In this document: positions 59,580 to 61,374 of the stretch, in pieces
Numbering within the stretch: position 1 is the stretch's first letter
How the letters are laid out: each line of letters opens with the position of its first letter
Assembly: GCA_019058315.1 (NCBI GenBank)
Contig: JAHPZH010000006.1
Coordinates: 64,001 to 128,000, forward strand
Source: Candidatus Helarchaeota archaeon
Lineage (GTDB): Archaea; Asgardarchaeota; Lokiarchaeia; Helarchaeales; RDOG01
Length of the DNA stretch: 64,000 nt
Direction: 5' to 3'
The notes under the pieces: model-generated
What the model was told of the DNA's origin: nothing
The model's input: the letters and a program-made list of their open reading frames with translations, nothing else
The model's database searches: none
Translations under genes and position numbers: made by a program

Positions 59580-60302
59580 TTATTTCAAGCATAATACCGC
59601 AACAGGTGTGGATGCTTTTCTCCATTGTGCCATCTTTGAATCTGGGTCATAAGACATGGATATTTCTTTTCTTCCATGATTTCCTACTATCATTATAAGA
59701 GAATTTGGTGCTGCTTGTTTATACATACTCAACATCCACTTATCTGTCCTATGGATTAATCTTTTAATTAAGTTCTCAGGAGGACCACGTTTATAAATTG
59801 GATTTTGATATAAATTTTCGAAATCTAGGAAATGTATCCATTGAAAATCAAATCTATTCAAATATTTGGAAGCAGATACCCACGTATTTGTATCCATCTT
59901 AGTGGGAATAACTTTTGATGTTCCTGCATAAGTTATAAGATCTTCTTGTCTACCAATCATTAGAGTTGTTTTGGAATTTTGATTTAAATATGACATAAGA
60001 TTAAAATCTTTATTTTGAAGATCTCCATGAAAAATTTGGTGTAAAACCTCATTAGCAAGAGGTTGCTCAGTTTCTAATAATATTAAAGCTTTAGATTGAC
60101 TTATGACAAATTCGGGTTTGTGAACCACAATCTCAAATAATCCAAAGTTATCTAACATTATCAAAATAATACGTTCTATTGGGGGAGTCTTCATTTGAAT
60201 GGGTTCAGGTAAATTATTTGGAATTGTGATGCCAAATAAGTGTAAAATAGTTGAAGTTAGTGCTGGCATTGGTGCATTAATTGATGGTAAATCATCACTC
60301 AA
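59580..60302 (-). CDS. Degenerate alkaline-phosphatase-fold protein
   Basis: LIMLDNFG and IVGNHG resemble AlkP metal-binding segments. Confidence 0.5.
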   Translation of the reverse strand: MSDDLPSINAPMPALTSTILHLFGITIPNNLPEPIQMKTPPIERIILIMLDNFGLFEIVVHKPEFVISQSKALILLETEQPLANEVLHQIFHGDLQNKDFNLMSYLNQNSKTTLMIGRQEDLITYAGTSKVIPTKMDTNTWVSASKYLNRFDFQWIHFLDFENLYQNPIYKRGPPENLIKRLIHRTDKWMLSMYKQAAPNSLIMIVGNHGRKEISMSYDPDSKMAQWRKASTPVAVLCLK

Positions 60303-60465: not shown

Positions 60466-60591
60466 TGGAGCCTCAGCCGGGGAACGATCCCGGGACCTTT
60501 GCCTTTCTGGCAGATATTATTACCAGGGCAACGCTTTACCGTTGAAATTTTCAGATCGGCATGATTTTTCTACCAACTGAGCTACTGAGGC
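60466..60591 (-). tRNA. tRNA-Thr(GGU) with a 34-nt insert at 22/23 (60536-60569, probably two tandem introns) and a 16-nt intron at 37/38 (60505-60520)
   Basis: GCCTCAG/CTGAGGC acceptor stem with U73-CCA; CTGG/CCAG BHB at 37/38; T-loop ATCGTTC. Confidence 0.88.
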
Positions 60592-60601
60592 GTAAATTTA
60601 A

Positions 60602-60758
60602 TGGTGCGGGGGATGGGAGTTTCACCAAAATATATAATATTTCGGATTCGAACCCATGAACTCCTACGAGACAGGATCTTAAGTCCTGCGCCGTTCGGCA
60701 CGTTTGTATGACCCCATACAAGTTGTCTCTTTTGTTTTACCAGCTTGGCTACCCCCGC
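60602..60758 (-). tRNA. tRNA-Leu(UAA) with introns at 21/22 (60694-60736) and 59/60 (60619-60646)
   Basis: Long variable arm; central helices TGGT/GCCG and TTCG/TGAA; encoded CCA. Confidence 0.88.
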
Positions 60759-60868: not shown

Positions 60869-61067
60869 TGCCGAAGGAGGGCTTTCCGTCCAAATTCTAG
60901 TAGCTATTTGGTTTCGGACCCTCGATCTCCGGAATACGCGTTTATGGAGCTAAATCCGATAACTTTATGAGTCCGGCGCGTATTCTTCTTGATCATAATA
61001 GATCAAGATTTCTAACCAGGTTTCTCTCCAAGAAAGCTGAGCTTTCCGGGACCTAAGCTACTTCGGC
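60869..61067 (-). tRNA. Elongator tRNA-Met(CAU) with four introns: 15/16 (61021-61052), 23/24 (60980-61010), 38/39 (60934-60964), 59/60 (60883-60912)
   Basis: Removing the four hairpin inserts gives GCCGAAG TA GCTT AGCCTGGTTA GAGC G CCGGA CTCATAA TCCGG AGATC GAGGG TCCGAAG CCCTC CTTCGGC A. Confidence 0.82.
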
Positions 61068-61174: not shown

Positions 61175-61250
61175 TGGAGCCTCTGGGGGGATTCGAACCC
61201 CCGACCATTGGCTTACAAGGCCAGCGCTCTACCAACTGAGCCACAGAGGC
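61175..61250 (-). tRNA. tRNA-Thr(UGU), intron-less
   Basis: Standard cloverleaf with U73-CCA. Confidence 0.95.
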
Positions 61251-61265
61251 ATTATTTAGATGATA

Positions 61266-61374
61266 TGGTGGGAAAGGTGAGATTTGAACTCACGATCCCG
61301 TGGTTTCTTTTTGATCCTTTACAATTTTCGGATATCCCAAGCCACGAATCATAGCCAAGCTAGACCACTTTCCC
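61266..61374 (-). tRNA. tRNA-Pro(UGG) with a 31-nt intron at 37/38 (61305-61335)
   Basis: GGGAAAG/CTTTCCC acceptor stem; CGTGG/CCACG anticodon stem; relaxed BHB. Confidence 0.9.

Follow-up and report, generated by a model that had tools for sequence, protein, structure and literature searches.

The window, a 64,000-nucleotide stretch of DNA from a Candidatus Helarchaeota archaeon, carries on its minus strand a tRNA-Met(CAU) gene that is interrupted by four short introns. We consider it likely, with a probability of roughly 0.8, that this gene is functional, that it is apparently the only elongator tRNA-Met(CAU) gene of its genome, and that its introns would be spliced by EndA and RtcB with the anticodon intron removed last. 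The precursor also contains a helix, conserved among relatives, that joins the 3' regions of two of the introns and is predicted to compete with the anticodon stem.

Gene structure and mature tRNA

The gene spans 199 nt, running from window position 61067 (the 5' end of the RNA) to 60869 (the discriminator A); the RNA starts with GCCGAAG and ends with CUUCGGC followed by A. The initial annotation had described four inserts of 30-32 nt at 15/16, 23/24, 38/39 and 59/60, and a motif-free alignment of the 199 nt to the gene's own 75-nt spliced form bears out their sizes, positions and coordinates. The inserts measure 32, 31, 31 and 30 nt (124 nt in total) and follow positions 15, 25 (Sprinzl 23/24), 40 (38/39) and 59 of the 75-nt reference, the last of these points lying inside a repeat that makes its placement ambiguous over positions 57-60. 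The gaps fall at the same places when the gene is aligned to relatives in which one or another intron is missing. Counted along the precursor, the introns occupy positions 16-47, 58-88, 104-134 and 156-185. The parts of the gene, in the order in which they occur in the RNA, are as follows.

61053-61067, minus strand: exon 1, tRNA positions 1-15, with acceptor 5' strand GCCGAAG, U8, A9, D-stem 5' strand GCUU, A14 and G15
61021-61052, minus strand: intron 1, 32 nt, at 15/16 in the D loop; relaxed BHB with an inner hairpin
61011-61020, minus strand: exon 2, the 3' part of the D loop with G22 and A23 (CCUGGUUAGA)
60980-61010, minus strand: intron 2, 31 nt, at 23/24 in the D stem; 8-bp hairpin
60965-60979, minus strand: exon 3, positions 24-38, with GCG, anticodon-stem 5' strand CCGGA and loop CUCAUAA, which contains the anticodon CAU
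60934-60964, minus strand: intron 3, 31 nt, at 38/39; degenerate BHB centre
60913-60933, minus strand: exon 4, positions 39-59, with anticodon-stem 3' strand UCCGG, variable loop AGAUC, T-stem GAGGG and T-loop UCCGAA
60883-60912, minus strand: intron 4, 30 nt, at 59/60 in the T loop; canonical-class BHB
60869-60882, minus strand: exon 5, G60, T-stem 3' strand CCCUC, acceptor 3' strand CUUCGGC and discriminator A73

ARAGORN identifies the 75-nt spliced form as tRNA-Met(CAT), with a cloverleaf in which all four arms are present (acceptor 7 bp, D 4 bp, anticodon 5 bp and T 5 bp); the initial annotation had expected a normal elongator Met cloverleaf once the inserts are removed. No CCA is encoded in exon 5. 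The exons have a G+C content of about 60%, compared with 30% for the genome. The unspliced locus is invisible to ARAGORN, with or without its intron search, and the Rfam tRNA model gives no match to it even at E values up to 10. A search of the introns for C/D-box guide motifs gave none that was convincing.

An alternative parsing with five introns, in which the internal AGCUCAGC of intron 1 serves as a D-arm exon, gives an equally good cloverleaf in ARAGORN. This parsing was rejected because it is without BHB support and the element is missing from G001, a genome of the same family.

The mature T loop is UCCGAAG (window positions 60913-60918 plus 60882), with C55 at a position where U is nearly universal. 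An unusual loop is shared by the elongator tRNA-Met genes of the order, which carry ACCGAAG in G003 and G006 and AUCGAAG in G001, G005 and L091; U55 is replaced by C in several lineages. In the window's own clade, which comprises the window locus and its closest relatives L086 and L087, U54 and C55 are precisely the two bases that make up the full 4 bp in the BHB centre of the recently acquired T-loop intron.

In each of introns 1 and 3 there is a degenerate copy of the exon that precedes it. The copy in intron 1 (61036-61044) reads AAGCUCAGC, compared with UAGCUUAG in the exon, and that in intron 3 (60942-60951) reads CUCCAUAAAC, compared with CUCAUAAAG; intron 3 of G001 has GCUCAUGAAG. Such copies might hint at an origin of these introns by local duplication.

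Neighbouring tRNA genes

The gene is one of five minus-strand tRNA genes that lie head to tail within 0.9 kb. The other four members are listed here.

60466-60591, minus strand: tRNA-Thr(GGU), with two introns, one of 34 nt in the D stem and a canonical one of 16 nt at 37/38 with a perfect BHB centre
60602-60758, minus strand: probable tRNA-Leu(UAA), with introns in the D loop and the T arm and with CCA encoded; splice sites approximate
61175-61250, minus strand: tRNA-Thr(UGU)
61269-61374, minus strand: tRNA-Pro(UGG), with anticodon arm CGUGG-CUUGGGA...CCACG and a 31-nt intron

The unspliced tRNA-Thr(GGU) locus is missed by both ARAGORN and Rfam, and its spliced form is called tRNA-Thr(ggt) by ARAGORN. 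Both programs also miss the probable tRNA-Leu(UAA), for which an initial choice of boundaries gave no fold in ARAGORN. A tRNA-Leu gene follows tRNA-Met in G003 too. For positions 61269-61374 the intron search of ARAGORN returned Ser(tga); this call was rejected, as the anticodon arm reads Pro(UGG).

Splice-site motifs

The BHB geometry was calibrated on the canonical intron of the initiator tRNA gene in the tRNA array of this genome. Intron 4 has a central helix UCCG/CGGA with all four pairs, an outer helix formed by the 5-bp T stem, and an inner helix of 6 bp with one extra A; in partition-function folding of the full precursor the pairs of this BHB have probabilities of 0.45-1.0. The central helix of intron 1 has three of its four pairs (GCUU with GAGA), and the corresponding sequence of G001 has all four. 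Intron 2 likewise scores three of four, with G19-A21. The covariation in the inner helices of these two introns, described below, speaks for genuine structure in both. The initial annotation had noted a poor central helix for the 38/39 intron, and this was confirmed: intron 3 has two of the four pairs, and the count is the same if the intron is placed at 37/38.

Read from the sequences, intron 3 of G001, G003 and G005 keeps the centre GUGA with U33-U36, giving four of four central pairs in G001, and the sister family has AUGA. In the window's clade and in L091 the intron ends in GUAU, which replaces GUGA/AUGA. A manual search for another partner of U33-U36 anywhere in the precursor found none; a lone AUGA in the intron 2 hairpin was considered and rejected, being without flanking helices and not conserved. 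From a centre of two pairs it would be puzzling how EndA finds the splice sites of intron 3, even with the anticodon stem formed. The neighbouring tRNA-Thr(GGU) has a perfect 37/38 BHB, and the organism therefore does not generally dispense with the motif. Genome-wide BHB scoring of ARAGORN-called introns was set aside, since the ARAGORN calls are unreliable on multi-intron genes.

Conservation and intron gain among relatives

The tRNA gene is flanked by an ORF of 240 amino acids (window positions 59580-60302, minus strand), the close homologues of which come from Candidatus Helarchaeota according to the NCBI naming. The flanking protein is 80% identical in L086 and 74% identical in L087, the gene order is the same as in the window, and both loci have the same tRNA gene with all four introns. 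The exons are identical at 75 of 75 positions between the window and each of these two loci, whereas the introns match at 17/35 to 27/31 positions (49-87%). RNAalifold analysis of five family-level precursors found one two-sided compensatory pair in the T stem, covariation at two pairs of the intron 1 inner helix (C-G to U-A) and covariation at three pairs of the intron 2 hairpin. The acceptor pair 5:68 is also compensatory, being A-U in three of the sequences and G5:C68 in the other two (G001 and L091). Taken together, the exon identity and the covarying introns indicate, at the level of sequence comparison, that the gene is under purifying selection and that its introns are constrained for shape and not for sequence.

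Orthologues were recovered from 24 genomes including that of the window, and 21 of the other 23 were aligned with the window locus to the 75-nt form. A single such Met gene per genome was found in 24 of 41 related genomes; in two genomes of one family (f2) no Met gene was recognised. A metagenome scan with the 17-mer ACGCGCCGGACUCAUAA gave 28 matches, all of them chance hits in DNA that was unrelated and for the most part GC-rich.

Among more distant relatives, the number of introns in the Met gene ranges from one to four. Introns 1, 2 and 3 are present in G001, from which the T-loop intron is absent, and L091 and L092 (flanking protein 61% identical) have introns 2 and 3 only, as does G003. 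Intron 1 is absent from L091, from G003 and from the class-level relatives, and intron 2 is absent from the compact relatives G011, G033 and G016. In a neighbouring family, two order-level relatives, G005 (L023) and G006 (L021), carry four introns in the Met gene at positions that differ from those of the window gene; one of the four, about 30 nt long, interrupts the acceptor stem in its 3' strand. This variation in intron content indicates that the introns near 23/24 and 38/39 are old in the class. Judging from its distribution, intron 1 is younger than introns 2 and 3. Compared with G001 and L091, intron 4 stands out as a clean insertion of 30 nt, and it is confined to the clade formed by the window locus, L086 and L087.

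One locus of the sister family (L038 in G033) has an insert with the GAAUUGGGUCAGA core of the 38/39 intron of the others, placed after about position 45 in the variable region, with a copy of UCUGGAG ahead of it. This displaced insert may reflect intron sliding.

The cross-intron helix

The precursor contains a perfect 9-bp inverted repeat, GAAUACGCG/CGCGUAUUC, linking the 3' regions of introns 2 and 3. Both the sequence and the coordinates agree with those claimed for it in the initial annotation.

60977-60985, minus strand: helix 5' strand, GAAUACGCG, the last 6 nt of intron 2 with G24, C25 and G26
60932-60940, minus strand: helix 3' strand, CGCGUAUUC, the last 7 nt of intron 3 with U39 and C40

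The helix contains the 3' splice sites of both introns. Since its pairs include U39 and C40 and cross the anticodon stem, only one of the two structures can exist at a time; a pseudoknot combining them was rejected as sterically impossible, the connecting loops being 0-2 nt long. Introns 2 and 3 have four splice sites between them, and every pairwise combination of these was tried with the helix as the outer or central helix of a BHB. This too was rejected, as two 3-nt bulges across 4 bp never arise at the true sites.

Perfect inverted repeats of at least 9 bp occurred in 82 of 1000 dinucleotide shuffles of the precursor (8.2%), and on this one sequence alone the helix is accordingly insignificant. 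Its core is GC-rich and partly palindromic (ACGCGU). However, a helix of 7-11 bp lies at the same place in all five family-level precursors, and the RNAalifold consensus structure includes it. The length is 9 bp in the window's genome, L086 and L087, 7 bp in G001 (CACGCGC/GCGCGUG) and 11 bp in L091 (AAUAUGCGCCG/UGGCGUGUAUU, with three G-U pairs). Within the shared 6-bp core there is one two-sided change (U-A to C-G), there are two wobble changes and no pair is broken; the rest of intron 3 is unalignable between the helix-bearing lineages. The core is shared by descent in the close relatives, and the independent evidence therefore amounts to about three lineages. In the neighbouring family, G006 has a 6-bp analogue, GCGCUG/CAGCGC, which fits its own anticodon stem CUGGA (CCGGA in G003 and G005). 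No comparable cross-intron helix was found in the sister family.

Partition-function folding of the window precursor (energies for protein-free RNA at 37 °C) gives pair probabilities of 0.9-0.99 for the helix and 0.002 for the anticodon stem, and forcing the anticodon stem in the precursor costs 3.7 kcal/mol. The values for the helix are similar in the relatives, with anticodon-stem probabilities of 0.000-0.005. The exception is L091, in which the helix has a probability of 0.49-0.82 and the anticodon stem of about 0.18. When intron 2 is removed in silico, 3 bp of the helix are left and the anticodon stem forms. The cross-intron helix is thus real as a conserved feature, and its dominance over the anticodon stem is a prediction of these folding models.

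Splicing enzymes

The initial annotation had reasoned that splicing of this gene needs a broad-specificity EndA, and the genome does encode a two-paralogue EndA of the type associated with a broad substrate range. The domains PF01974 and PF02778 each match two loci. At the first (C12:5149-5703 of the window's genome), the 184-residue EndA alpha has as its best PDB match the catalytic subunit of Aeropyrum pernix (3P1Z_B, E = 4e-45), to which it aligns end to end with the Tyr/His/Lys triad in register and with RKPKT in the specific loop against EKPRG. Earlier work ties the lysine of this loop to broad specificity (PMC5829648). The second locus (C1:331411-332016) encodes a paralogue of 201 residues with both domains and a proline in place of the catalytic histidine. 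On these alignments the pair matches the (alpha-beta)2 type that is linked to broad specificity. A homologue search with EndA alpha returned only relatives from Thermoproteota. RtcB is also present (PF01139, 582 bits).

Proposed splicing order and possible role of the helix

On the reading that we prefer, a precursor of about 199 nt would be transcribed with four protein-spliced introns, at 15/16, 23/24, 38/39 and 59/60. A two-subunit, (alpha-beta)-type EndA would excise the introns, and RtcB would join the five exons into the 75-nt tRNA, to which CCA would then be added. Intron 4, with a canonical BHB of its own, should be removable at any time, and introns 1 and 2 would present relaxed motifs. 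The 3' end of intron 2 with G24-G26 would pair with the 3' end of intron 3 with U39-C40 and would replace the anticodon stem for as long as intron 2 is present, so that the anticodon intron would be removed last, after the D-stem intron. An ordered splicing with the D-stem intron leaving before the anticodon intron, an order that the initial annotation had taken to be obligatory in some form, is plausible, as it fits both the predicted dominance of the helix and the order known from Cyanidioschyzon merolae, discussed below. Two points speak against the preferred reading: the 3' splice site of intron 2 lies within the helix, which should impede the same removal of intron 2 that would resolve it, and the T loop has C55. 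Sugahara and colleagues are said to have found in 2007 that some motifs form only once other introns are gone.

The helix itself may nevertheless be without function, a by-product of the GC-rich, partly palindromic exon segment (GCGCC) and of shared intron ancestry, with any splicing order set by BHB stability alone. We would give this explanation somewhat less than an even chance. It accommodates the frequency of equally long repeats in the shuffled sequences and the identity by descent of the three 9-bp copies, but complementarity has been kept in three lineages with an otherwise unalignable intron 3, in which the sequences differ (GAAUACGCG, CACGCGC and AAUAUGCGCCG) and the extensions lie on different sides while the shared core is unbroken. 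The sister family has introns at the same two positions and no helix, and in G001 the position of the helix relative to the intron 3 splice site is shifted by about 3 nt; the analogue in G006, on the other hand, matches that genome's own anticodon stem. A further point against a mere by-product is the C at intron 3 position -5 in the window's clade, which favours the helix and weakens the BHB centre.

A more ambitious proposal makes the helix a selected folding checkpoint, which would hold the anticodon stem unformed until the D-stem intron is gone. Intron 3 of the window's clade would on this proposal have given up its BHB centre, and EndA would find the sites otherwise, perhaps by measuring from the mature tRNA body. 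Eukaryotic splicing endonucleases measure from the mature tRNA body in this way. We regard the proposal as unlikely.

Copy number and isotype

The initial annotation had raised the possibility of another elongator Met gene, and none was found in the assembly, which is 94.3% complete, by a 15-mer search, by three structure scans for CAU anticodon arms or by BLAST with the Met genes of relatives. The 15-mer, taken from exon 3 and allowed one mismatch, has a single occurrence in the genome. The other CAU genes found are two in number, and both are of initiator type.

C3:630544-630636: compact initiator-type tRNA-Met, in a tRNA array
C5:113829-114010 of the window's genome (G000), plus strand: dispersed initiator tRNA-Met, 182 nt, with three introns (D arm, anticodon loop and T arm) and an encoded CCA

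The marks used for initiators were A1:U72 and three G:C pairs at 29-31:39-41, and both of these genes carry them. The window gene does not, having G1:C72, the anticodon stem CCGGA/UCCGG, the anticodon CAU and A73. The same genome scans did not find a tRNA-Ile2(CAU) gene. As this gene was missed as well and the genome is about 94% complete, the scans are not exhaustive and the absence of a second Met gene is unproven.

This incompleteness leaves some room for the window gene to be a decaying copy, unspliced on account of its weak BHB centres, with a working elongator Met gene elsewhere or in the unassembled 6%. The central helices of introns 1-3 do score three, three and two of four, where G001 has four of four for introns 1 and 3. 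We nevertheless consider a decaying copy very improbable, since the exons are identical at 75 of 75 positions in three genomes while the introns diverge, A5:U68 is compensated against G5:C68, the intron stems covary, and no other candidate emerged from any of the searches above. That the product is instead tRNA-Ile2, with C34 of the CAU anticodon converted to agmatidine so as to read AUA, seems very improbable: the anticodon alone cannot separate Ile2 from Met and no Ile2 gene was found, but the elongator Met gene would then be missing altogether, the acceptor start GCCG and the anticodon arm CCGGA-CUCAUAA-UCCGG are of a kind that we take to be typical of archaeal elongator tRNA-Met, and one such gene per genome occurs in 24 of the 41 related genomes.

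Comparison with known systems

The initial annotation had taken three introns as the usual described maximum for a tRNA gene. That figure is outdated, as published Asgard tRNA genes reach five (PMC11291895; bioRxiv 10.64898/2026.10.13.758758). In the first of these, introns are described in 92-95% of the tRNA genes of three complete Asgard genomes, with over half of the genes having several introns, often at non-canonical positions (Valentin-Alvarado et al. 2024, PMC11291895). For the focal families of the preprint the tally is 2.2 intervening sequences for each gene, and the highest number in a single gene is five; inserts in the D arm, it notes, systematically escape detection, and two EndA paralogues are found in most genomes (bioRxiv 10.64898/2026.10.13.758758). 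The window gene fits this heavily interrupted class, having an Asgard host, four inserts above the 10-nt threshold for the class relative to compact relatives with the same anticodon, and a locus that annotators miss. Like the Asgard genes described in the available text of these reports, it has several short (about 20-40 nt) protein-spliced introns, many of them at non-canonical positions in the D and T arms, it is overlooked by standard tRNA finders, and it is accompanied by two EndA paralogues and by lineage-specific intron gains. It differs in its host, which is of the Helarchaeota type, a lineage that we did not find named in the preprint text. Neither an intron-intron helix competing with the anticodon stem nor a splicing order is described in the available text of PMC11291895 or bioRxiv 10.64898/2026.10.13.758758. 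Four introns per se are already known, whereas the helix and the lost BHB centre of the anticodon intron were not found described in the portions of the literature examined.

The gene is in these respects a Helarchaeota-type example of a phenomenon already known in Asgard archaea, and a further case in which standard tRNA finders miss an essential Asgard gene, here apparently the sole elongator Met tRNA gene. It offers a ready in vitro substrate, with natural helix variants of 9, 7 and 11 bp, for asking whether intron-intron pairings dictate the splicing order in multi-intron pre-tRNAs. A second question is whether an Asgard EndA can cut an anticodon intron that is without a BHB centre, which bears on the origin of the body-measuring recognition of eukaryotes.

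The multi-intron tRNA genes described from Thermoproteales have at most three introns each (Sugahara et al. 2007, 2008; Marck and Grosjean 2003; cited through PMC4090602). The window gene resembles these genes in having BHB or relaxed hBH/HBh' introns at the D arm, at 37-39 and at 59/60 and in the (alpha-beta)2 EndA. It differs from that other phylum, with its maximum of three, in having four introns, one of them without a recognisable central helix.

The closest parallel to the proposed order comes from the three-intron tRNA-Ile(UAU) of C. merolae, in which, by RT-PCR, the anticodon intron was shown to leave only after those of the D stem and the T loop (Soma et al. 2013, PMC3728597). That gene is eukaryotic and nuclear, unlike the one described here, and its authors credit the order to BHB free energy or position and to no intron-intron helix (PMC3728597). 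The D stem, anticodon loop and T loop are nevertheless interrupted in both genes, and the order observed in C. merolae is the order that we infer for the window gene.
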